Positions 3,466-11,479 of a DNA stretch of 64,000 nucleotides are shown one piece after another. The notes under the pieces were generated by a model. It was not told the origin of the DNA, made no database searches, and saw only the letters and a list, made by a program, of their open reading frames with translations. Where the stretch lies: the NCBI GenBank assembly GCA_036377435.1, contig DASUYM010000314.1, positions 547 to 64,546 of the forward strand. The letters run 5' to 3'. The stretch comes from Propionibacteriaceae bacterium. Lineage in GTDB: Bacteria; Actinomycetota; Actinomycetes; Propionibacteriales; Propionibacteriaceae. The translations under genes and the position numbers were made by a program. Numbering within the stretch: position 1 is the stretch's first letter; each line of letters begins with the position of its first letter.

Positions 3466-3546
3466 CGAGCCAGGGCAACGCTCAGCGATGCCGTTCCGTC
3501 ACTTTGCAAGCACGGGGTTAGCGGGTCGAGTCCCCTTGGCTCCACC
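3466..3546 (+). pseudogene. decayed tRNA-Ala(UGC)-like relic (not a functional tRNA)
   Basis: The sequence is CGAGCCA..GCTCAG..C-TTTGCAA-GCACG GGGTT AGCGG-GTCGAGT-CCCCT TGGCTCC-A-CC. It is colinear with bacterial tRNA-Ala(UGC): D-arm GCTCAG, anticodon loop TTTGCAA, T-arm AGCGG/TTCGAnT/CCGCT, and 3' end TAGCTCCACCA. The acceptor pairs at 6/7 and the T-stem at 4/5. The D and anticodon stems do not pair. T54 is G, and pair 3:70 is A-T instead of G-U. Confidence 0.5.
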
Positions 3547-3647
3547 CCTCTTTGGACTCCCCTCGGCGACATCACCATCGGAGCCCGGTGCGCCGCTACG
3601 GTAGTGCCCGCGGAGCCGTCAGCGCGGCTTCTATAAGGAGTGCCAGG

Positions 3648-4559
3648 ATGAGCGTCACCATTGACGGCCCGGCCGACTTCCCGGCGTTGTTTCGGAGCGC
3701 GGACCGGGAATCTGAGCGAGCACAGCGGTCTTACCTGAGGTCACTCAGGGTGCGCCTCGGTGCCCTGCTCGTCGCAGCCTTCGGCGGTGCGCTCACGCTG
3801 ACTACCGCGGGTGGCTTTCAGGTTGGTGGTGGTCTGGCATTTCTCGCCTTCGCTTGCGCGTTGGGCGCCGAGCTCTTCCTCGCCAGGACCAACCCGCTCA
3901 CAACATGGTACGAGGGCCGGGCCGCAGCGGAGTCAGTCAAGACGCTCGCCTGGCGATACATGGTGCGCGCCGAGCCCTTCGAGGGCGACGCCCCTGACGT
4001 CGACAAGCAGTTCCTTGCCCAGACCCACTCGCTGCTGCAGGACCTTCGGTCGATCTCATTGGGGACAGCAGAACCCGGTGCACACCAGATCAGCGACAAG
4101 ATGCGCCAGGTTCGCGCTCTCGACTTCGATGAGCGTCGGCAGGTCTACCTCGCCGACCGGATTGCCGACCAGCAACACTGGTACTCCGAGAAGGCGCAGT
4201 GGAACGATCGCCGAGCGCGCGGATGGGTGCTCGTCAGCATTGTGCTCGAAGTCGCCGGCCTCATCGGCGGCGCGCTCAAAGCGTTCGGCTGGATCAGCTT
4301 TGACCTGCTCGGCTTCCTTGCCGCATCGGCCGCGGGTGTCATGGCCTGGATCGAGGCGAAGCAGCACCGCAACCTGGCGACGGCGTACGGCATCGCGAGT
4401 CAAGAGCTCGCCTCAATCGCGACAGAGCTCCCGACGTTGAACAACGAGGAGCGTTGGGCCGCCTTCGTGGGCCAGGCCGAAGAGGCGATCTCCCGCGAGC
4501 ACACTCTGTGGCGGGCGTCACGGGGACTGTCCGACCGCTTCAGACACAGAGAAGGCTGA
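3648..4559 (+). CDS. 4-TM SLATT/DUF4231-like membrane protein (predicted conflict-system membrane effector)
   Basis: ATG 3648 lies 7 nt after AAGGAG. The plan is: TM hairpin (LGALLVAAFGGALTLTT / GLAFLAFACALGAELFL), then TWYEGRAAAESVKTLAWRY, a helical linker, QQHWYSEKAQWNDRRARGW, a second TM hairpin, and a C-terminal helix. The family assignment is from memory of SLATT/DUF4231 architecture. Confidence 0.6.
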   Translation: MSVTIDGPADFPALFRSADRESERAQRSYLRSLRVRLGALLVAAFGGALTLTTAGGFQVGGGLAFLAFACALGAELFLARTNPLTTWYEGRAAAESVKTLAWRYMVRAEPFEGDAPDVDKQFLAQTHSLLQDLRSISLGTAEPGAHQISDKMRQVRALDFDERRQVYLADRIADQQHWYSEKAQWNDRRARGWVLVSIVLEVAGLIGGALKAFGWISFDLLGFLAASAAGVMAWIEAKQHRNLATAYGIASQELASIATELPTLNNEERWAAFVGQAEEAISREHTLWRASRGLSDRFRHREG

Positions 4560-4566
4560 ACAAGGC

Positions 4567-4601
4567 CGACCCACCACGACTCGGGCTGGCGTGGGTGGTC
4601 G
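4567..4601 (+). terminator. possible stem-loop terminator after the first SLATT gene
   Basis: CGACCCACCACG-(11 nt)-CGTGGGTGGTCG pairs at 10 of 12 positions and starts 8 nt after the stop. There is no T-tract. Confidence 0.3.
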
Positions 4602-4704
4602 TCGACTTGGCGGAAATATATGCCAGGCGCGATTCCGCTAACCGACGTCGGCGACCTGACTCTTAGGCTTACAGCAGGCGCTCGGGTGAGTGGAAGTGGT
4701 CAGT

Positions 4705-6264
4705 ATGGAGAAAGGCGAGGCGGGGCGGGTCTTCATCAGCTATCGACGCCAGGAGACGGCGTGGCCGGCGCGACAGCTCTACGACGCGCTCGTAGCTGAA
4801 CTGGGGCCGGATCGGGTCTTCAAGGATGTCGACGACATCGAGCCAGGCGATGACTTCGTCGAACGGATCCAGTCGGCTGTGGGCTCCTGCCAGGTGCTAC
4901 TCGCTCTGATCGGGCCCCAGTGGCTCACCGTCACCGATGCCAAGGGAGCGAGACGCCTCGATGACCCAGAGGACTTCGTTCGGCTCGAGGTTGAGACCGC
5001 ACTGAATCGAGACGACGTTCGAGTCATTCCCATTCTCGTTGACAACGCCAGGATGCCGACGCCTCCGGAACTGCCGAAAGGGCTGGCGGGCTTGACCCGT
5101 CGACAGGCGGTCGAGATAAACCCGGTCAACTTTGACACTCGTCGACTCTTGAGGGTGCTGAACCACACGCTGAACGACGTCGGCGGCGAGCCAGATGGGC
5201 CGTTGATATCCGGGGCCGGCGTACGGGTCCAGCCACCGGGGACAACACCGCCCGTACCTCGGGTCGAATCCGCGGCCGCGGACGGGACGAGCGATGAGTG
5301 GGTACGACCCTCCGCGCCTGCCAGACCCGGAAGCGATCGAGCGGCAGCCCGAAGACGAACGGGCATGTTGGTGGCCGTCGCTACTTCGGTCGTCTTGCTG
5401 GTGGCGGGTGGCGCCGCTGCCTGGTATGTCACGCGCGATCCTTACCAAGGCACTGCGACGATCGGCAACTCCACATCCGCCTCAAGTCCGCCCTCTGCCA
5501 CCCTCGATCCGTCCAGCAGTCCGTCGAAGACCACAGCGGCTGACGACCCAACCGGTTCGGACATCCTCGCCCACCGCGGCGGCGACGAGAAGTATCCGTT
5601 GCAGACCTTTGAGTCCCTCACGTCGGCGGCCGATGACGGCTTCGCGGTGGAAACTGACGTGCGCTGGACCAGCGACAACCGTGCGGTGATTATCCACGAC
5701 GCCGCGGCGACCCAAGGGTTACGGTGCGATCGGCCTTACCAAGTGTCCGAGACGACATGGAAAGTGCTCAGCGAGCACTGCCGCTCATTCACGAAGAACG
5801 GGAAGTCCTATCCGCCTGCAACGTACGCAAATGTGATGGAGGGCCTGGCGAGCTACAGCTCATGGGTCTACGTCGAGGTCAAGGTTGACCAGAACGCTGC
5901 GCAAAACCGCGAGTTCATCGATGTCATCCGCAGTAACGGGCTGAGTGACCGCACCGTCGTCACCTCAAACAGCCTGGACCGGCTGGCCCAAATCAGAAAG
6001 CTCGCACCCGATCTCCCTCGCATGCTCTTCATTGGCGAGAAAGTTCCCGCAAACCAACTGGATCAGGAGAAGTTGTGGGCTGTTGCGGTCAACCATGAGG
6101 TTGCGACGAAAGACTACGTAACCGAGCTGAAGGATGCTGGGATCGTCGTAATCGTCTGGACCGTGAATGAGAAACAAGCATGGGCAAAGGCGAGGTCGGC
6201 GGGCGCCGACAAAGTGCTGACCGATAAGCCAAGCGCTTACGCCGCCTGGCTGGACAAGCAATGA
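4705..6264 (+). CDS. TIR domain - single TM helix - extracytoplasmic GDPD-like phosphodiesterase fusion protein
   Basis: The N-terminus RVFISYRRQETAWPARQLYDAL...QVLLALIGPQWL...DFVRLEVETAL is TIR_2-like. The helix MLVAVATSVVLLVAGGAAAWYV is preceded by AARRRT. A Ser/Pro/Thr linker follows. The GDPD motifs are ILAHRGG and FAVETDVRWTSDNRAVIIHD. An alternative GTG start lies at 4690. Confidence 0.8.
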   Translation: MEKGEAGRVFISYRRQETAWPARQLYDALVAELGPDRVFKDVDDIEPGDDFVERIQSAVGSCQVLLALIGPQWLTVTDAKGARRLDDPEDFVRLEVETALNRDDVRVIPILVDNARMPTPPELPKGLAGLTRRQAVEINPVNFDTRRLLRVLNHTLNDVGGEPDGPLISGAGVRVQPPGTTPPVPRVESAAADGTSDEWVRPSAPARPGSDRAAARRRTGMLVAVATSVVLLVAGGAAAWYVTRDPYQGTATIGNSTSASSPPSATLDPSSSPSKTTAADDPTGSDILAHRGGDEKYPLQTFESLTSAADDGFAVETDVRWTSDNRAVIIHDAAATQGLRCDRPYQVSETTWKVLSEHCRSFTKNGKSYPPATYANVMEGLASYSSWVYVEVKVDQNAAQNREFIDVIRSNGLSDRTVVTSNSLDRLAQIRKLAPDLPRMLFIGEKVPANQLDQEKLWAVAVNHEVATKDYVTELKDAGIVVIVWTVNEKQAWAKARSAGADKVLTDKPSAYAAWLDKQ

Positions 6265-6282: not shown

Positions 6283-7317
6283 CTAGTGGTCGGCACCTTC
6301 TCCGCTGGAGGCGGCGTCTTTCTGCGAGGTTCCGCTGCTGAGGGCTTTCTCCAGCCGTGCAACGGCTGCCTGCATATTCTCGGCTCCCTCCAACCATTGG
6401 CGATGCTCGAGCGATAGCTGGTCCTGCACAGCGGCGACGTACTCACCGAGCACCGACGTGGATCCGGCGGCGATGCCGAGTCGAACGTCGTCGAGGCGCT
6501 CGCGTAAGCCCTGCAGTGCCTGAGCGGTATTGTCATAACGCTCGGCGTTCCTACGATCTTGGTTGAGGGATTCGCGGGCGGCGGCGAACGCTTGGAGCGC
6601 GGCGCCGAACACCGCAAGCGAACCGAGCGCAGCCCATTCGCTCCTCAGCGCACCGAGTACTCCGGCCGCACCTGAGGCAATTGCCGCAACCAGGACGGAT
6701 CCGGCCGATATATCAAGGGTCCGTTCGGCCGAGTTGCGGTGCCCCGACCGGCGGGTTTTGTAGTAAGCGAGCTGAAGGTCTAGCTGATAGCGGCGAAAAT
6801 ACTCCAACTTGAGCAGTTCGAGCTGGAGATCGAGTGGCTCTATTGAGGAGTTCACGATGTAACTGAAGTAGGACAACCGTTTGGTCTCTGCCCGAGCGCG
6901 CGCGGTCATCCAGTCCTCGAGGAGCCGACCTTCCTTCACCCGAAACAGCGACATCGACGCGACTCCGCCGGTGGCGACACCCATAAGAGCGAGCGCGATG
7001 AGAATTGTCTGAGTTAAGCCGCCCAATCTGCCCGCAAGCAGTGCCACAGCCATCAGTAGCGCGCTCACCGTCGCCGTTGCGAGGACGGCCCGGTTGGCTC
7101 GGATTACCCATCGCTTGAACTTTCGCTCTGCGGCAAGTGCTTCAGTGTCAGCGTCCGCATACTGGTGCGCCAGCTCCACGGGGGCGCTGCGGGTCAGCAG
7201 AGCGGCCAGTTTGGGCGCCGAGGTTTTCAGCTGCGCGGCGTGCTCGACAGGCGACAGTCCGTAGTCATCAGGGCTGCCGCTGCCAATAATTCGGGCCGCA
7301 TCCGACATGATCATCAC
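6283..7317 (-). CDS. 4-TM SLATT/DUF4231-like membrane protein, paralogous in plan to 3648..4559
   Basis: The ORF is 344 aa. It has a TM hairpin (AVLATATVSALLMAVALLA / ILIALALMGVATGGVASM), then DWMTARARAETKRLSYFSY, LQLAYYKTRRSGHRNSAERT, a second TM hairpin, and ...NAERYDNTAQALQGL. It is convergent with the TIR gene with an 18-nt gap. Confidence 0.55.
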   Translation of the reverse strand: MMIMSDAARIIGSGSPDDYGLSPVEHAAQLKTSAPKLAALLTRSAPVELAHQYADADTEALAAERKFKRWVIRANRAVLATATVSALLMAVALLAGRLGGLTQTILIALALMGVATGGVASMSLFRVKEGRLLEDWMTARARAETKRLSYFSYIVNSSIEPLDLQLELLKLEYFRRYQLDLQLAYYKTRRSGHRNSAERTLDISAGSVLVAAIASGAAGVLGALRSEWAALGSLAVFGAALQAFAAARESLNQDRRNAERYDNTAQALQGLRERLDDVRLGIAAGSTSVLGEYVAAVQDQLSLEHRQWLEGAENMQAAVARLEKALSSGTSQKDAASSGEGADH

Positions 7318-7467
7318 CCCGCGATCTCGACACGTTCGTGGCTTAGCACCTCAAAGGTGAACATGCTCATCCGACCATCGACAGGTGTGACGTCAAAGTA
7401 CAGCAGTGTCCCCGCTACTCAACGCTGTCCCGCGGGGTTCGCCCACACTCGGCGCAGCAAGTGGGTT

Positions 7468-7738
7468 TCAGCTGGTCGTGTCAGTGAGAAATGCGTGAAC
7501 GCGGTCGGTCTGGGTTGGCAGCAGATGGCCGGCATCGGGAAAGAGGATGACCGTCGCATGTGGAGCGTGCTGTTCCAGCCGTTGCTTCGTGTCGACCGAG
7601 TTGAGAACGAACGTCTCGCCCAGGTGCGTAGAGATCCAATCCTCGGTGTGCGGTACGGGCCAGCCGGCCAGCAACTCCTTGTAGTGGCGGCGCAGTGCCG
7701 CCGCGCTCTCGGGGGGTGCGGTAGATCGCGTCGGTCAT
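7468..7738 (-). pseudogene. alpha/beta hydrolase remnant (internal deletion plus frameshift)
   Basis: One frame gives MTDAIYRTP. The other gives ESAAALRRHYKELLAGWPVPHTEDWISTHLGETFVLNS, a typical hydrolase N-terminus. That is joined directly to ...HAPHATVILFPDAGHLLPTQTDRVHAFL, a typical C-terminal His region. The whole catalytic core is missing. Confidence 0.6.
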
Positions 7739-7746
7739 GGGCGGCG

Positions 7747-8186
7747 TTATCCCTCGACCACAGCGCTGACGAGACGAAGGATCTCGGCGCTGCGGGTGAG
7801 GCCGCCGGTCAGAATCACGCTCATGCTGGCGAGCTCCTCGTCGTAGTTGATGGTGATGTGGAGCTGTTCAGAGCTCTCCGACGGTGTGGCGGCGATCCCG
7901 GAGATAAGACCGGCCAGGCGATCGCGCAGATCGGGGCTGACCGCGTCCACCCGGATAACGCTGGACGCGTGAGCCTGACGCTGGCGAACGACTGCCTGTC
8001 GGGGGGTTGTCGGCAGCGACGCGCCGGCAAACGCTTCGAGGTCAGCCCGCGCAATGCGGTAAGACTTGCCGATTCGGGTCGCTTTGAGGCGACCGTCCCG
8101 GCGTGGCGGCCAGGATAGGGCGGATGCCTATCACGTCGGCCCGGGGGCCGACTCTTTAGAGCGCGAGCCATTGCAATTGAGGCCAA
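7747..8186 (-). pseudogene. excisionase/MerR-type HTH gene, apparently frameshifted
   Basis: The open frame reads ...SWPPRRDGRLKATRIGKSYRIARADLEAFAG... (HTH_17-like recognition helix and wing) with no start codon upstream of it. The preceding helix (ADVIGIRP) and an ATG (MARALKS) sit in two other frames. Only the C-terminal 67 codons (7747..7950) have a start (GTG). Confidence 0.4.
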
Positions 8187-8260
8187 TAGCCAGTGACATC
8201 AGCTTGGGCGCTGCATACTGACCTCTAATTGCGCGTTGGTGGCACTCGGGGGTTGTAGAT

Positions 8261-11200
8261 ATGCGGCGCAAATATTCGCGCGCAAGCGCGTTAGCCGGAC
8301 TGCTCGGTCTGATCATCAGTGTCAGCGTCGGTGTCGACGTGGCGGCTGCCCATTCCCCTGGGGATGACCAGGCTGATGTTGAGCACGCCAAGCAGGATCT
8401 TGCCGGTACCTCGATCGAGCAGATCGAGAAGCAAACCCTGGCCAACGCAGCCAAGATCAAGAAGGCTACCGGAGACACTCCCGGCCGACCGACGGCCGAA
8501 CAGAATGTGCCCAACGCCAGCATCTCGGCTGCCGCCGCTGCGGATCCTGGCCAGGGTGGAGCCTGGAGCTCGGTGGTCAACACCGACCAAGGAGGCAAAA
8601 CAGGAGTCGTGCCGATTTTCCAGGCAGTCCTGCCGAACGGCAAGGTGCTGATGTGGGATTCAGTGGGACAGAACGCGCCGGAGTCGATGACGAACAACAC
8701 CTTCACCCGCGCCCAGATTTGGGACCCTAACGCCAACCCCGCGACCACCGTCCGCAAGGACGTCCCGAACTACAACATCTTCTGCGCTGGATACACCCAA
8801 CTCGCGAACGGCAATGTGCTGCTCGTCGGCGGCAACAAGAATGCTGCGCTCGACGGCATTGTGCAGACCCACATTTTCGATTGGCGTAAAGAGGAGCAGG
8901 GGCAAATGCCCTGGAGCCGTGGACCTGATATGGCGGCTGCGCGCTGGTATCCCGCGGTCCAGGCTTTGGGCAATAACGAAGCCGTGATCGTTGGCGGCGG
9001 TCCGACTGTCCCCGAGGTCTACCAGACCAACAACACGCTTCGCCGGCTCACGAACGCCAGCGGGTATAGCGATCGGCTCTATGCATTCCTCAGCACCCGT
9101 CCCGATGGCCAAGTCCAGTTGATGGGTCCCCCTGGCCAGATGAGCACTATCAACACCAGCGGCACCGGAGCGATCAGCGCCACACAGACACGCGACAACA
9201 TCAACCGCACCTATGGCGGCTTCGCCACCTACAACGTAGGTAGGTCCTCGACCGGCGAGGATTACGCCAAGGCCCTAGTCGTCGGAGGCGGCGACATTAC
9301 CGAAGGCGGCCAGAACGACGTACCCACCAAGACGGCTAAAGTCGTTAGCGTCAACGGCAGCACCACCGCCGTTAGCTCCACCGCCTCTATGTCGGTAGGA
9401 CGGCGGCAACACAACCTCACCATTTTGGCTGACGGCAGCGTGCTCGCCACTGGCGGAATGAGCCGCGCGACCAATGCGAACGTCGATCTCAATAACCCAG
9501 TGTTCGCCGCGGAGCGGTGGGATCCAGCCACAGGGACCTGGACAGTCTTATCCGGCGCGAGCCGAGTACGCCAATACCACTCCAGCGCCACGCTGCTGCC
9601 AGACGGCCGCGTACTCACCGGCGGCGGCGGAGTCTGCGCTTCCTGCGTCAGTGCGGGATATCTGGAGAAGAACATCGAGTACTTCGAGCCGCCCTACCTC
9701 TATAAGAAGGACGGCAGCGGGCAGAAGGCGACCCGACCGGTGATCAGCTCCGCACCAAGCACCGCTACCTATGGGCAAGGTTTCAACATCACCTCGACGC
9801 AGGCCGGATCCATTGCCAAGGTTGGGCTCGTACGCCTTGGGGCGGCCACACACAGCCAGGACCAGGGACAGCGCTACGTACCCTTGTCCTTCACGGTCTC
9901 AGGCAGCACCATCACTGCGACTCCGCCAGCGACCTCAAACATCGCGCCAGCCGGTTACTACATGCTCTTCATCACCGATACTGCCGGCGTCCCGTCAGTG
10001 GCCAAGATGATCCAGGTGCAGCAGAAGCCGGCGGTCAAGGGGGCGCCGTCGGACTTCAACGGCGACGGATTCTCTGATGCGGTCGTCGCCGATCCTTACG
10101 CCGACCCCGGAGGTGCCGCCGACGCCGGACAGCTGACCGTGCGCTATGGCAACAGCAGCACGATCGGGGGCGGGTCGGTGGACACGCTCGTGCAGGGCTC
10201 GGGCAGCGTGGGCAACACTGCCTCGGCCGGAGACCGATTCGGGTCCACCCTGGCTGCTGCCGATCTTGATAACGATGGCTACACCGACCTCCTCGTCGGA
10301 ACACCATACGAGGACATCAGCGGCCAAGCCGATTCCGGGTTGGCACAGGTCATCTGGGGTTCGTCAGGCGGGCTCGGCGAGGGCAGGGCATCGACGCAGC
10401 TGACCCAGAGCTCCTTTGGGAGGACCGCTGCCGCAGGTGATCAACTGGGTTACGCGCTGGACGCGTCCAACGAGCTGGGCGCTGACTTGCCAATGGCGGC
10501 CGTTGGTGTTCCGCGCGGCAATGTCTCCGGGCAGAATGACGCCGGATGGGTCGGCCTCCTTGCCGCCGGCCTCAACGATCCGAGGGCCGTTGATCAAAAC
10601 TCTGCTGGGATTCCTGGGGCCGCTGAGGCGGGGGATCGGTTCGGCGAAGCGATCACGCTCGGCCTGATGGCCGGGACCTCCAGCCGAGTTGATGCCGCGG
10701 TCGGTACCCCAGGCGAGGACTTAGGCTCCGGTACAAGTGCGATAACCAACGGCGGCGCGTTCACCATAATCAACGATCTCTACACCGGAGTCGTAGCTGG
10801 GCAAGCCTACGACCAGAACAGTTCAGGGGTCCCCGGCACCCCGGAGGGCAATGACGCCTTCGGCCAGGTCGTGGACAGCGTCCGGGCCGGGGGCACCACA
10901 CACTTGGCGGTCGGAATTCCCTCCGAGGACATCGGAACGGCGGCCGACGCCGGCAGCGTGCAGCTCTTTTCTTCCACTGGCACCACGATCACGCCGGGCG
11001 TTGGGCTGACTCAGGACATCACGAATGTCGCAGACACGTCCGAAGCGGGTGATCAGTTCGGGCGCCGTCTCGTGCTGGCACCGCCGGGATTGAGTGACAC
11101 CAAGACTCGTCTTGCCGTGTCCGCGCCGTACGAAGACCTGTCAGCCGTCGCCGACGCTGGGCTGGTCCAGATCTTTCCGCTTGATGATCTTGGTGCGGAG

Positions 11201-11479
11201 GTCACCTACGACCAGAACAAGGAAATTGATAGCACCCCGATTGAGGGCAGCGTGGCCGCCAATGATCATTTTGGTGAGGGCCTCGGCTTCGTGGCCGGCG
11301 TGGCCGAGCGCTCCATCTTGATAGGAGTGCCCGATGATGTGGAGTTCTCGAGCGGCATAGTGCACGTCATCCCGCTGCCCGGTGGGCCCCCGCGGACCTG
11401 GCGCCCGGGTGTGGGCGGAGTTCCGCCTACAGCGGCGGACAGGTTCGGTGGCGCTGCCGGCGGGGAGGTGCAGCAGTAG
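8261..11479 (+). CDS. secreted galactose-oxidase/glyoxal-oxidase-like radical copper oxidase fused to FG-GAP repeat region
   Basis: A signal peptide is present (ASALAGLLGLIISVSVGVDVAAA). The copper-oxidase motifs occur in the expected order: NIFCAGY (Cys of the Tyr-Cys cofactor), ARWYPA, RQYHSSATLLPDGRVLTGGGG (Tyr-His), and AATHSQDQGQRYVPL (His). The C-terminal ~480 aa carry repeated FG-GAP units (FNGDGFSDAVVADP, GDRFGSTLAAADLDNDGYTDLLVGTPYED, and others). Confidence 0.8.
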   Translation: MRRKYSRASALAGLLGLIISVSVGVDVAAAHSPGDDQADVEHAKQDLAGTSIEQIEKQTLANAAKIKKATGDTPGRPTAEQNVPNASISAAAAADPGQGGAWSSVVNTDQGGKTGVVPIFQAVLPNGKVLMWDSVGQNAPESMTNNTFTRAQIWDPNANPATTVRKDVPNYNIFCAGYTQLANGNVLLVGGNKNAALDGIVQTHIFDWRKEEQGQMPWSRGPDMAAARWYPAVQALGNNEAVIVGGGPTVPEVYQTNNTLRRLTNASGYSDRLYAFLSTRPDGQVQLMGPPGQMSTINTSGTGAISATQTRDNINRTYGGFATYNVGRSSTGEDYAKALVVGGGDITEGGQNDVPTKTAKVVSVNGSTTAVSSTASMSVGRRQHNLTILADGSVLATGGMSRATNANVDLNNPVFAAERWDPATGTWTVLSGASRVRQYHSSATLLPDGRVLTGGGGVCASCVSAGYLEKNIEYFEPPYLYKKDGSGQKATRPVISSAPSTATYGQGFNITSTQAGSIAKVGLVRLGAATHSQDQGQRYVPLSFTVSGSTITATPPATSNIAPAGYYMLFITDTAGVPSVAKMIQVQQKPAVKGAPSDFNGDGFSDAVVADPYADPGGAADAGQLTVRYGNSSTIGGGSVDTLVQGSGSVGNTASAGDRFGSTLAAADLDNDGYTDLLVGTPYEDISGQADSGLAQVIWGSSGGLGEGRASTQLTQSSFGRTAAAGDQLGYALDASNELGADLPMAAVGVPRGNVSGQNDAGWVGLLAAGLNDPRAVDQNSAGIPGAAEAGDRFGEAITLGLMAGTSSRVDAAVGTPGEDLGSGTSAITNGGAFTIINDLYTGVVAGQAYDQNSSGVPGTPEGNDAFGQVVDSVRAGGTTHLAVGIPSEDIGTAADAGSVQLFSSTGTTITPGVGLTQDITNVADTSEAGDQFGRRLVLAPPGLSDTKTRLAVSAPYEDLSAVADAGLVQIFPLDDLGAEVTYDQNKEIDSTPIEGSVAANDHFGEGLGFVAGVAERSILIGVPDDVEFSSGIVHVIPLPGGPPRTWRPGVGGVPPTAADRFGGAAGGEVQQ

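Follow-up and report, generated by a model that had tools for sequence, protein, structure and literature searches.

A membrane-anchored TIR-GDPD protein encoded between two SLATT genes in Propionibacteriaceae: a possible relative of the Thoeris type VII systems

Introduction

The TIR proteins of known Thoeris systems (ThsB) are described as sensors of infection that then become makers of a signal. In Thoeris type VII, which has been reported in Actinomycetota, a ThsB TIR protein is combined with a SLATT effector, ThsH, and both the anti-phage activity of the pair and its use of the canonical cADPR signal have been demonstrated experimentally (bioRxiv 10.64898/2025.12.03.692087). Here we describe a gene from a soil-dwelling Propionibacteriaceae bacterium whose product, which we refer to as TIR-GDPD, joins a TIR domain through one predicted membrane helix to a glycerophosphodiester phosphodiesterase (GDPD) domain, and which is flanked by two genes for tandem-SLATT membrane proteins.

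The gene lies at positions 4705..6264 (+) of the window, by which we mean the whole 64,000-nucleotide stretch of DNA that was analysed. An earlier note on the same DNA had drawn attention to the TIR-TM-GDPD polypeptide, which it took to be unusual in architecture, exported at its C-terminus and altered at its metal site; the SLATT context was absent from that note. Its statement that no characterised TIR protein has such a topology holds within the literature searched, where we likewise found no link between TIR and GDPD.

Results

The reading frame and its domains

The open reading frame at 4705..6264 (+) is real. Its translation is free of stops over 519 aa plus the terminal stop codon, the reverse strand is stop-rich, GC3 is 0.73 against a GC2 of 0.48, and homologues share the ATG at 4705 as their start (MEKGEAGRVF...); the mechanically called frame opens at GTG 4690, five codons before this ATG. 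Profile matches, homologues and an AlphaFold2 model all bear on the product. A match to Pfam TIR_2 (E 4.8e-14, 53.3 bits where 28 is the cut-off) takes in aa 9-125, and one to Pfam GDPD (PF03009; E 7.6e-24, 85.6 bits against 23.6) takes in aa 290-510 with profile positions 1-243 of 244; GDPD_2 also matches, and all three profiles score above their gathering cut-offs. A first AlphaFold2 model, built with 40 close homologues, had a mean pLDDT of 47 and was superseded by one built on a 64-sequence alignment that included relatives of 45-55% identity (pLDDT 79), in which the TIR domain reaches 80-94 and the GDPD domain 83-98, aa 222-242 form a helix and the two linkers are disordered.

Pfam, hydropathy and AlphaFold2 together bear out the domain order given by the earlier note (a TIR domain and a disordered linker, then one TM helix, a Ser/Pro/Thr linker and the GDPD barrel), and every string that it quoted, namely AARRRT, MLVAVATSVVLLVAGGAAAWYV, STSASSPPSATLDPSSSPSKTT, ILAHRGG, YPLQTFESL, VETDV and IIHD, is present in the translation. 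No second copy of the TIR, GDPD or SLATT-A genes was found within the 64,000 nucleotides of the window. Public databases label the protein only as 'glycerophosphodiester phosphodiesterase family protein'.

The TIR domain

The TIR domain, predicted to be cytoplasmic, occupies 4705..5184 (+; aa 1-160) and is modelled by AlphaFold2 as strands alternating with helices. Among solved structures its top sequence match is the TIR domain of SARM1 (E about 1e-4, aa 4-130), in which DWVHKEIVTAL is aligned to DFVRLEVETAL of TIR-GDPD; this sets E95 (nt 4987-4989) opposite the Glu of HKEI, which is E642, the catalytic residue of SARM1. E95 is invariant in alignments of 40, 64 and 110 relatives. Because SARM1 is the closest match, and because the residue aligned with its Glu is invariant, the TIR domain looks enzymatic and of the SARM1-like type, with E95 as its putative catalytic residue. 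Mean identity of the domain is 0.88 within the clade, and the TIR module retains 45-68% identity across phyla. Such conservation across phyla is unusual, and would sooner be expected of a cellular function under constraint than of rapidly evolving immunity.

No similarity to the two verified type VII ThsB TIR domains was detectable by sequence, and the TIR-GDPD motifs are absent from the searched part of the supplement to the type VII study; on a comparison with these two verified sequences, the domain was not placed in the ThsB clusters of that study.

Linkers, membrane helix and topology

The TIR domain is followed by a cytoplasmic linker rich in Pro, Gly, Ala and Arg (5185..5364, +; aa 161-220), disordered by composition and by a pLDDT below 50 and ending in AARRRTG; its mean identity is 0.53, and its length varies strongly among relatives. 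The single TM helix lies at 5365..5430 (+; aa 221-242; model helix 222-242) and, with a Kyte-Doolittle peak of 2.25, is the sole segment of the protein above 1.6. Five K/R are found in the 15 residues before it and one after it. Beyond the helix is a Ser/Thr/Pro-rich linker, predicted to be extracytoplasmic (5431..5559, +; aa 243-285; 10 S, 8 T and 6 P in 43 residues; pLDDT below 50).

TIR-GDPD has no signal peptide or N-terminal hydrophobic signal. All 64 relatives have one TM segment with an excess of K/R on its N-terminal side (mean 3.6 against 0.7 on the C-terminal side), and Cys341 and Cys359 of the GDPD domain are invariant among relatives down to 36% identity. Since there is no signal, the TM helix follows the positive-inside rule, the Cys pair is kept and the nearest TIR-less relatives are GDPDs anchored in the membrane at their N-terminus, with the same two Cys, the N-in/C-out topology of a type-II membrane protein, as the earlier note had proposed, is well supported at the level of sequence.

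The GDPD domain and its active site

The GDPD TIM-barrel, predicted to be extracytoplasmic, spans 5560..6261 (+; aa 286-519). The assignment of this fold to the C-terminal domain is upheld by Foldseek, which aligns the model with 2pz0 (E 1.7e-19, target-normalised TM (TMt) 0.86, rmsd 2.3 A over 239 columns) and with GlpQ 5t91 (TMt 0.81), and by sequence matches in the PDB to 2otd (7.5e-11) and 2pz0 (1.7e-8). The key residues are H290, R291, E316, D318, H331, D332, E391 and K393, together with the cysteine pair C341/C359. The HRG and HD motifs of 2otd, 2pz0, 3qvq and 4oec have their aligned counterparts in H290, R291 and H331; across the 64-sequence alignment R291 and H331 do not vary, and H290 is present in at least 90% of the sequences. 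E316, D318 and E391, which align with the E-L-D of 2pz0 and with the Glu of its N-I-E-I-K, are also invariant.

The E-N-[ST] motif is not found after HRG, its place being taken by P-L-Q-T at aa 298-301 (LQT at 299-301). L299 is invariant in the clade, and relatives read mostly LET, as well as FET, SET, AGT, WQT and SHT; as the alignment stands, LQT in place of ENT is a family trait, and the LET of most relatives is a shifted Glu. The metal ligands of GlpQ are Glu-70, Asp-72 and Glu-152, and the ENT Glu is not named as a ligand of either metal or phosphate (PMC7086022). The earlier note was thus right that ENT reads LQT, but its suggestion that a metal-binding Glu is lost and the metal site altered is not supported, as E316, D318 and E391 are invariant and the ENT Glu is no named GlpQ ligand. 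A leaning towards phospholipase D or SMase D is likewise not favoured: ordinary GDPDs are the best matches in both sequence and fold, with LpgD 8ghh (TMt 0.65) and LyPls-PLD (0.61-0.63) below the 0.81-0.86 of GDPD and GlpQ structures, and the NCBIfam LpgD equivalog gives E 3.3e-6 and 26.6 bits against a cut-off of 450. In the window's clade the GDPD domain has lost none of its catalytic residues, and there it is therefore probably an enzyme. Certain other TIR-GDPD relatives are without the GDPD catalytic residues, a loss that fits a binding or sensing role of the domain.

Distribution of the architecture

Both TIR and GDPD domains are present in each of the 119 full-length clusters that make up all but one of the best 120 matches (68-99% identity), the remaining match being a 403-aa fragment with GDPD only, and relatives at 36-62% identity also have both; a chance fusion is ruled out by the presence of the two domains in these 119 clusters and in the distant relatives. 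More than 120 close clusters show the architecture, as do about 20 species-level genomes, which belong for the most part to Propionibacteriaceae, with Micropruina and Aeromicrobium in addition. Rather than being rare, it is common in its clade and forms one branch of a large family in which TIR and TM are followed by a variable ectodomain (TIR-TM-X). Across this family the TIR module is fused via one TM helix to 76 Pfam C-terminal families (97 representatives), including WD40, PD40, Kelch, TPR and FGE-sulfatase, and such varied ectodomains on one TIR module are the pattern to be expected of a constant output with interchangeable sensors.

The family is widespread in soil Actinomycetota, and its TIR module is found in many other phyla as well. 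One weak TIR match was found in 2.9 million viral contigs, and a mobile or phage origin of TIR-GDPD was rejected on this near-absence. The culturable relatives include Micropruina sonneratiae, Arthrobacter sp. MAHUQ-56 and Pseudarthrobacter siccitolerans 4J27.

The SLATT genes and the spacer

Directly upstream of TIR-GDPD is SLATT-A (3648..4559, +), which codes for a 303-aa tandem SLATT_3 + SLATT_1 (DUF4231) membrane protein and whose ATG at 3648 is preceded by AAGGAG. The domains are recognized by Pfam (SLATT_3 8.2e-46, SLATT_1 3.4e-36, DUF4231 7.3e-19) and by NCBIfam (SLATT_3 4.9e-53, 179.6 bits against 45; SLATT_1 3.1e-35, 121 against 41), and the protein has hydrophobic segments near aa 37, 61 and 192. 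SLATT-B (6283..7317, -), convergent with TIR-GDPD, codes for a 344-aa membrane protein with SLATT_1 (Pfam 1.6e-7; NCBIfam 1e-10, a marginal 41.6 against a cut-off of 41), a weak SLATT_3 (0.0067) and four hydrophobic segments, such segments being paired in both SLATT-A and SLATT-B. The stop codons of TIR-GDPD and SLATT-B are 18 bp apart, and SLATT-A ends 145 bp upstream of TIR-GDPD.

The spacer between SLATT-A and TIR-GDPD (4560..4704, +) consists of a variable, hairpin-capable first part and a conserved last part of about 65 bp (approximately 4640-4704, containing CTCTTAGGCTTAC); in an alignment of seven loci the distal part is rich in indels and the proximal 65 bp or so are nearly invariant. 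This proximal part may be TIR-GDPD's own promoter and 5' leader, an assignment that we infer because TAGGCT resembles TAnnnT; a sigma-70 scan gave no promoter match in the spacer. A structured RNA in the spacer was rejected, the whole-spacer fold being no better than those of shuffles (z -1.0). SLATT-A and TIR-GDPD are on the same strand, SLATT-B is convergent, and the 145-bp spacer contains the conserved promoter-like part; to judge from this layout, SLATT-A, TIR-GDPD and SLATT-B are probably not one operon. A stretch at 3500-3550 that looked like the 3' end of a tRNA or tmRNA was considered as an integration scar and dismissed for want of ARAGORN or Rfam (gathering threshold) support; ARAGORN detects neither a tRNA nor a tmRNA anywhere in the window, and Rfam at permissive thresholds gives only a chance miRNA match.

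Conservation of the neighbourhood

A SLATT or RyR-domain membrane protein adjoins TIR-GDPD in 19 of 26 loci other than that of the window. SLATT-A is also adjacent in L001/L012, L005-L008 and L017, and SLATT-B in all loci of at least 74% identity, among them L009 and L010, where SLATT-A is missing; the trio of SLATT-A, TIR-GDPD and SLATT-B is conserved and the outer flanks differ between loci. A tandem SLATT gene is upstream of TIR-GDPD in L086, from Micropruina, and downstream in L088, and L013 has a single divergent SLATT. The SLATT-A counterparts of L086 and L088 are 38-42% identical to that of the window and the TIR-GDPD proteins 44-46%, so that, on these identities, the divergence of the SLATT partners has kept pace with that of TIR-GDPD. 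In eight other TIR-GDPD loci the neighbour is a membrane protein of about 780 aa with a RyR domain; phage RyR-domain proteins of the same Pfam family bind or cleave 2'/3'cADPR (PMC13232231). SLATT or RyR neighbours occur in at least five different gene arrangements, and their recurrent adjacency together with this parallel divergence is hard to explain without a functional link. Seven of the 26 loci have no SLATT or RyR neighbour, and TIR-GDPD can therefore exist alone.

A protein search with SLATT-A returned only matches of at least 75% identity and was uninformative on distant contexts, and SLATT adjacency was therefore examined from the TIR-GDPD side. Arthrobacter and Pseudarthrobacter carry the same TIR module with other ectodomains, and there the gene overlaps a SLATT gene. 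An all-against-all comparison of two genes on each side in 66 TIR-TM-X loci gave only small clusters, and a single partner gene for the whole family was rejected. PADLOC recognizes no known defence system among the four nearest genes; conflict-type genes lie near certain relatives (L087, L088), and the surrounding synteny is partly ordinary chromosomal (a hydrolase, a galactose-oxidase-like protein and a fatty-acid desaturase).

Discussion

The analysis establishes the architecture of TIR-GDPD, its fold, the conservation of its catalytic residues, the sequence-based evidence on its topology and its recurrent neighbourhood. We read the protein as the TIR component of a Thoeris-type-VII-like TIR/SLATT system, membrane-anchored and provided with a surface enzyme or sensor, and give this reading a probability of about 0.5. 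TIR-GDPD would then be a type-II membrane protein with a cytoplasmic SARM1-like TIR domain and, outside on a flexible Ser/Thr/Pro tether, a GDPD domain that is catalytically competent by its residues; the flanking tandem-SLATT proteins would be its partners in a two-part, Thoeris-like membrane system. The GDPD ectodomain would register an envelope event, possibly a change in glycerophosphodiester material (teichoic-acid-like polymers, (lyso)phospholipid head groups) such as phage attack or envelope damage might bring about, upon which the anchored proteins would cluster and their TIR domains form an active oligomer. The E95 site could then cleave NAD+ to give a cADPR-type nucleotide and/or lower NAD+, and the nucleotide would open the SLATT membrane proteins, so that growth of the attacked cell stops. 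In this scheme we infer the chemistry, as well as what triggers the system and which way the signal runs. The scheme is counted against by the lack of detectable similarity to the two ThsB domains, the probable absence of a single operon, the 7 of 26 loci in which TIR-GDPD has no SLATT or RyR neighbour, the lack of a known defence gene among the four nearest neighbours, the partly ordinary synteny and the high conservation of the TIR module, and by the kept catalytic residues of the GDPD domain, whose probable catalysis the scheme does not tie to signalling.

The sole other folded domain of a TIR protein being outside the membrane would put sensing at the cell surface, and its regular pairing with SLATT or RyR proteins offers a concrete, testable circuit. 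A TIR/SLATT system of this kind would bring type VII-like signalling into a large TIR family for which the literature searched offers no characterisation, and would supply a candidate ligand for bacterial RyR-domain membrane proteins. A broader proposal, which we regard as unlikely, is that TIR-TM-ectodomain proteins are 'outside-in' immune receptors, in which an active GDPD domain reads or processes envelope glycerophosphodiesters, the TIR domain makes a cADPR-type nucleotide and the nucleotide gates a partner, SLATT here and RyR in sister lineages. If this were true, the signalling from cADPR to ryanodine receptors would have its prokaryotic counterpart in the RyR version, which would also add a new class to the Thoeris-like effectors.

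It is possible, if doubtful, that TIR-GDPD is instead a self-contained, membrane-anchored SARM1-like NADase, whose ectodomain senses an envelope cue and whose TIR domain depletes NAD+, leading to dormancy or abortive infection, with the SLATT and RyR proteins independent or accessory. The seven loci without such a neighbour would be expected of a self-sufficient enzyme, as would the apparent status of each gene as its own transcription unit and the absence of a conserved partner family at most loci in which the same TIR module carries other ectodomains; moreover SARM1, an NAD+-consuming enzyme, is closest to the TIR domain, and the Thoeris survey sets stand-alone TIR proteins aside as likely NAD+ depleters. 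The association in 19 of 26 loci, in at least five arrangements and with partners that diverged in step, nevertheless sits poorly with independence, as does the fact that SLATT and RyR domains are both tied to nucleotide signals.

Four observations would go unexplained if TIR-GDPD were a housekeeping, membrane-anchored exo-GDPD engaged in phosphate scavenging or in the remodelling of teichoic-acid-like polymers or phospholipid head groups, its TIR domain serving as an oligomerisation or NAD-linked regulator and its SLATT adjacency having no defence meaning: the invariant catalytic-type Glu of the TIR domain, the recurrent SLATT/RyR neighbours, the joining of TIR-TM to dozens of unrelated and mostly non-enzymatic ectodomains, and the loss of GDPD catalytic residues in certain relatives. 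We consider this role quite improbable, although the residues for catalysis and metal binding do not vary within the clade (H290 being kept in at least 90% of sequences), plain TIR-less exo-GDPDs have the same anchor and linker as well as the Cys pair and the motif, the locus has a stable chromosomal setting with no known defence gene among the nearest four and almost nothing in viral contigs, the TIR module is highly conserved across phyla, and the only public name refers to the phosphodiesterase. A TIR domain regulating envelope phosphodiester metabolism would itself be new. Lysophospholipase D enzymes (LpgD, LyPls-PLD) and the SMase D toxins also belong to the GDPD superfamily, and the GDPD domain could in principle be the effector, a phospholipase-D-like or teichoicase weapon directed against the cell's own outer membrane leaflet, its wall or neighbouring cells, with the TIR domain as cytoplasmic regulator. 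The weak matches to LpgD (NCBIfam, 3.3e-6) and to 8ghh and 7ym0 (Foldseek), and the hydrophobic Leu that LQT brings near the substrate site, point that way; ordinary soluble-substrate GDPDs are however the better matches by sequence and fold (TMt 0.81-0.86 against 0.61-0.65), the LpgD equivalog score of 26.6 is far under its cut-off of 450, relatives with dead GDPD sites persist and the other ectodomains of the family are not enzymes, and we think such a weapon highly improbable.

SARM1 is the best solved-structure match to the TIR domain and keeps the Glu in D-[WF]-V-x-x-E-[IV]-x-T-A-L, but identity is low, and SARM1 is a soluble protein under the control of ARM and SAM domains, in contrast to a TIR domain placed N-terminal to a membrane anchor and ectodomain. 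With GlpQ, UgpQ and the T. tengcongensis GDPD the C-terminal domain shares a full Pfam match, the fold, HRG, E-x-D, HD, the later E-x-K and the GDPD insert; it differs in having L-Q-T for ENT and a Cys pair in the insert region, and in being membrane-tethered and fused to TIR. The TIR-less actinobacterial GDPDs P0158, P0176 and P0186, whose GDPD domains are 42-44% identical to that of TIR-GDPD, have the same kind of anchor, Ser/Thr/Pro linker, two Cys and [LFW]-[EQ]-T motif, but are without the N-terminal TIR domain and cytoplasmic linker. Members of the TIR-TM-X family with WD40, PD40, Kelch, TPR, FGE-sulfatase, RDD or unknown ectodomains are 60-70% identical in the TIR domain, usually have a linker and one TM helix after it and in certain cases a SLATT gene following; the C-terminus of TIR-GDPD differs from theirs in being an enzyme fold rather than a repeat or binding domain.

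Toll-like and IL-1 receptors may be compared by analogy only, as single-pass proteins with an outward domain and a cytoplasmic TIR domain (PMC7075850). Their TIR domain is C-terminal (type I) and that of TIR-GDPD N-terminal (type II), the ectodomains are unrelated, and the TIR domain here is likely to be an enzyme and not an adaptor, so that no homology of the whole architecture is implied. At the level of the locus, a close known system is Thoeris type VII. TIR-GDPD differs from it in that its TIR domain is SARM1-like, membrane-anchored and joined to an extracytoplasmic GDPD domain, and in having two SLATT genes, both of the tandem SLATT_3 + SLATT_1 type and probably not in one operon with the TIR gene; the system is known here from sequence. 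What the two have in common is a TIR gene that immediately adjoins the gene for a SLATT membrane protein, a link that recurs in diverged TIR-GDPD relatives.

Results

The gene at window 4705-6264(+) runs for 519 codons without interruption, stops abound on the opposite strand, and its codon-position GC (GC3 0.73, GC2 0.48) resembles that of the neighbouring genes. Pfam places TIR_2 at aa 9-125 (E 4.8e-14) and GDPD at aa 290-510 (E 7.6e-24, profile positions 1-243 of 244), with GDPD_2 matching too, while NCBIfam and PADLOC return only generic similarity to TIR and GDPD. In a hydropathy scan, this TIR-GDPD protein has a single segment of membrane type; it spans aa 221-242, peaks at 2.25, and has five K/R in the preceding 15 residues and one after it. 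In an AlphaFold2 model built on a 64-sequence alignment, both the TIR (pLDDT 80-94) and the GDPD (83-98) are confident, residues 222-242 are helical and the two linkers are disordered; a model from 40 close homologues was unusable and was superseded by this version. GDPD structures occupy the Foldseek top 50 against the PDB throughout, which supports a GDPD-barrel fold for the C-terminal domain, against the refuting outcome named in the earlier note; 2pz0 matches at E 1.7e-19 (target-normalised TM 0.86, rmsd 2.3 A) and Bacillus subtilis GlpQ (5t91) at a target-normalised TM of 0.81. Pfam, the hydropathy scan, AlphaFold2 and Foldseek thus confirm the order TIR, TM, GDPD in one polypeptide that the earlier note had proposed, and every string it quoted is found in the translation. 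The GDPD model (window 5560-6261) also resembles virion-borne GDPD domains of staphylococcal phages, namely the C-terminal domain of phage K gp155 (9f5m, target-normalised TM 0.86) and the phi812 central spike (9eul); the phi812 spike is a case of the same fold carried by phages on virion proteins.

In alignments with solved GDPDs, their P-E-N-T reads P-L-Q-T in TIR-GDPD. The ENT to LQT change is therefore real, but the loss of a metal-binding Glu that had been read from it is not supported, the aligned acidic ligands being conserved. The ligands named for GlpQ are Glu-70, Asp-72 and Glu-152 (PMC7086022), LpgD also uses 'the same three acidic residues' (PMC10404611), and the ENT glutamate is not among the metal ligands named in either source. 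Aligned with 2pz0, H290-R291 correspond to HRG, E316/D318 to E-L-D, H331-D332 to HD, and E391/K393 to the E and K of N-I-E-I-K; each of these residues is invariant or nearly so in both the 40- and the 64-sequence alignments, and the catalytic machinery and metal triad are therefore intact. L299 is invariant within the window's clade, and departure from ENT is shared by the family: L-E-T or F-E-T, in which the Glu is displaced by one residue, predominates among relatives, while S-E-T, A-G-T, W-Q-T or S-H-T occurs in a few. The change more probably adjusts the substrate pocket than costs the site its metal. The first catalytic His is missing from the homologues P0126 and P0129 (ARRGG), and P0140 lacks nearly all catalytic residues (AEGG, no ExD, no HD), which argues that part of the family keeps the GDPD domain without catalysis; these three are likely pseudo-enzymes retained as binding domains. 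The sole pseudo-enzyme locus examined, that of P0126 (L092), lacks both a SLATT and a RyR neighbour.

For the N-in/C-out topology predicted in the earlier note, the sequences offer support of five independent kinds. TIR domains use cytoplasmic NAD+, and the N-terminus of TIR-GDPD (MEKGEAGRVFISYRRQ...) has no signal-like hydrophobic stretch. A single hydrophobic segment follows the TIR domain in 64/64 aligned family members, and K/R are in excess on its N-side in all 64 (mean 3.6 vs 0.7). Cys341 and Cys359, in the GDPD insert region, are invariant across all aligned TIR-GDPD proteins, down to 36% identity, which is the pattern of a putative disulfide in an exported domain. In the closest TIR-less GDPDs (P0158, P0176 and P0186; 42-44% identity), a charged N-terminus is followed by one TM anchor, then by a linker rich in Ser, Thr and Pro, and finally by the GDPD; they share the two Cys and the motif variant but lack the TIR, which makes TIR-GDPD look like a type-II anchored exo-GDPD with a TIR and a long disordered linker added at its cytoplasmic end. 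Mean identity within the clade is 0.88 for the TIR and 0.83 for the GDPD, and 0.53-0.62 for the linkers and TM segment.

The single polypeptide had been called unusual, yet it is no rarity: TIR-GDPD sequences are already public, under generic names only, and within its clade this architecture is frequent. Among the best 120 matches in a collection of 5.8 billion proteins, all 119 full-length clusters (68-99% identity) contain both domains, and their source names read only 'glycerophosphodiester phosphodiesterase'; in GTDB, at one genome per species, full-length genes occur in about 20 species, the carriers being Propionibacteriaceae soil MAGs, Micropruina, Propionicimonas and Aeromicrobium. 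When the TIR module (aa 6-160) was searched exhaustively with HMMER against 1.84 billion representatives, it proved 60-70% identical to the N-termini of well over 100 50%-identity clusters with quite different C-termini. In 97 representatives, 76 different Pfam families follow the TIR, including WD40, PD40 and Kelch propellers, TPR, RDD and FGE-sulfatase, usually with one TM helix in between. At 45-68% identity the module extends to Pseudomonadota, Myxococcota, Chloroflexota, Acidobacteriota, Verrucomicrobiota and Bacteroidota, but viral contigs contain almost none. Among solved structures, the module's closest match by sequence is the SARM1 TIR domain; E95, invariant in all alignments made, aligns with the Glu of SARM1 HKEI, the catalytic residue E642.

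The SLATT genes on both sides of TIR-GDPD were overlooked in the earlier note. SLATT-A (3648-4559(+), 303 aa) has a strong tandem SLATT_3 plus SLATT_1/DUF4231 match, and SLATT-B (6283-7317(-), 344 aa), convergent with TIR-GDPD, has SLATT_1 just above the NCBIfam cut-off and a weak SLATT_3; pairwise comparison of the two found no significant similarity. This trio is retained at every locus where TIR-GDPD is at least 79% identical, with differing outer genes, and loci L009 and L010 retain SLATT-B alone. Each of the three genes is probably transcribed on its own, SLATT-B being convergent. The ~65 bp that lead up to the TIR-GDPD start codon (window about 4640-4704), which contain CTCTTAGGCTTAC and AGCGGATGTGGTCAGT, are nearly invariant at seven loci, the rest of the spacer being indel-rich, and could be a promoter, leader or regulatory site.

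Several observations concern the trio's surroundings. The MAG MFD08497.bin.2.53 has two whole-trio copies (L005 and L006) on separate contigs with different outer flanks, and the trio thus behaves as a duplicable or movable cassette. In L017 (7001-8556) aa 1-519 of TIR-GDPD are covered at 92% identity only as short tblastn segments and are not called as one ORF; the gene may be frameshifted, whether because it is a pseudogene or because of an error in long-read assembly. Within the 7318-8260 gap, window 7510-7713(-) is an alpha/beta-hydrolase gene remnant matching only residues ~90-132 and ~274-306 of a 327-aa protein, and is therefore a deleted pseudogene; the intact gene lies beside SLATT-B in L001 (10772-11755). 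Adjoining the trio, window 8261-11479(+) encodes a galactose-oxidase-like protein of 1072 aa (Glyoxal_oxid_N, GO-like E-set and Kelch) with FG-GAP repeats, syntenic in L001/L012 and L005 and absent from L006-L010.

To see whether the SLATT link goes beyond local synteny, other genomes were examined around TIR-GDPD genes that have diverged to 44-51% identity. In Micropruina L086 a tandem SLATT gene precedes TIR-GDPD, in L088 one follows it, and in L013 a single-domain SLATT is divergent from it; the tandem partners are 38-42% identical to SLATT-A and have therefore diverged in step with TIR-GDPD. Overall, 19 of the 26 distinct non-window loci have a SLATT or RyR neighbour, and such a neighbour is missing at seven (L004/L011, L015, L025, L031, L039, L091 and L092). 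A RyR-domain membrane protein of ~780 aa (range ~775-830) directly adjoins TIR-TM-GDPD at eight loci, with PF02026 around aa 585-650: L014 (2897-5266), L016 (8768-11263(-)), L018 (8638-10998(-)), L019, L020, L087 (6581-8932(-)), L089 (6622-8964(-)) and L090 (2500-4827(-)). Sister genes in Arthrobacter, Pseudarthrobacter and a Propionibacteriaceae MAG encode this TIR module and one TM helix ahead of a small Cys-containing ectodomain without a Pfam match (L032:6956-8622, L033:6932-8615, L035, L036 and L029:1914-3983), and they overlap or abut a DUF4231/SLATT gene of 160-180 aa; the two named genera offer culturable hosts for examining the TIR-SLATT link.

Other conflict- or signalling-type genes also occur near diverged TIR-GDPD genes: a divergent 961-aa second TIR plus beta-propeller protein at L087:1960-4845(-), a TPR-S plus Trypsin_2 protein and an AAA_16/GerE pair in L088 (7830-9470(-) and 86-2841), and a guanylate-cyclase-domain protein at L090:6655-7542. 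In the myxobacterium Vitiosangium sp. (L070:4987-7447), an ORF with weak SLATT similarity (E 1.7e-5) runs up to the start of the TIR match; the two may form one SLATT-TIR fusion or a closely coupled pair.

Discussion

Gene pairs of TIR and SLATT were shown to be anti-phage systems, Thoeris type VII, reported from Actinomycetota among other phyla, in which infection leads to TIR-made canonical cADPR, and this cADPR arrests cells expressing the SLATT effector ThsH (2025 preprint, 10.64898/2025.12.03.692087). Phage RyR-domain proteins (PF02026) bind or cleave 2'cADPR and 3'cADPR (2026 preprint, PMC13232231). The SLATT and the RyR neighbours are therefore alike in having domains linked to nucleotides that TIRs produce, and by analogy with the phage proteins the RyR-domain membrane neighbours could be a new class of TIR-signal-responsive effector. 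The literature searched, these two preprints included, makes no mention of a TIR-GDPD fusion, of a membrane-anchored ThsB with an ectodomain, or of a bacterial RyR-domain membrane protein beside a TIR.

We propose, with a probability of about one half, that TIR-GDPD supplies the TIR of a Thoeris-like membrane system. The basis is the observed architecture, fold, catalytic-residue conservation, topology evidence and recurrent, co-diverging neighbourhoods; from it we infer the nature of the trigger and all chemical and physiological steps. The GDPD ectodomain would supply an envelope input, clustering of the anchored protein would activate the TIR, the E95 site would convert NAD+ to a cADPR-type nucleotide and/or deplete NAD+, and the SLATT proteins would answer by permeabilising the membrane. 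Against this reading, the TIR has no discernible sequence relationship to two verified type VII ThsB domains, the trio genes are probably not one operon, a partner is missing at a quarter of TIR-GDPD loci, known defence genes were not found among the four nearest neighbours, and the TIR module is more conserved than is usual in immunity. In addition, the GDPD of the window's clade has clearly been retained as an enzyme, although a mere sensor would have no need of catalysis.

The likeness to SARM1 recalls a self-contained sensor-effector that depletes NAD+ without a partner, which we consider doubtful beside the recurrent SLATT and RyR neighbours. A housekeeping exo-GDPD whose TIR is regulatory is unlikely. 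A PLD-like effector role for the GDPD is highly improbable, since ordinary GDPDs are clearly closest both by sequence and by fold.

Relative to the literature searched, three things are new: a membrane-anchored TIR protein in a Thoeris-like context that bears an exported enzyme domain, the regular presence beside it of tandem SLATT membrane proteins or, in sister lineages, of ones with a RyR domain, and its membership of a very large TIR-TM-variable-ectodomain family. Outside-in signalling, in which the ectodomain acts through the TIR on membrane proteins gated by SLATT or RyR domains, is a tentative and rather improbable extension of the Thoeris-like proposal. Among known systems, we class TIR-GDPD with the TIR/SLATT signalling systems.
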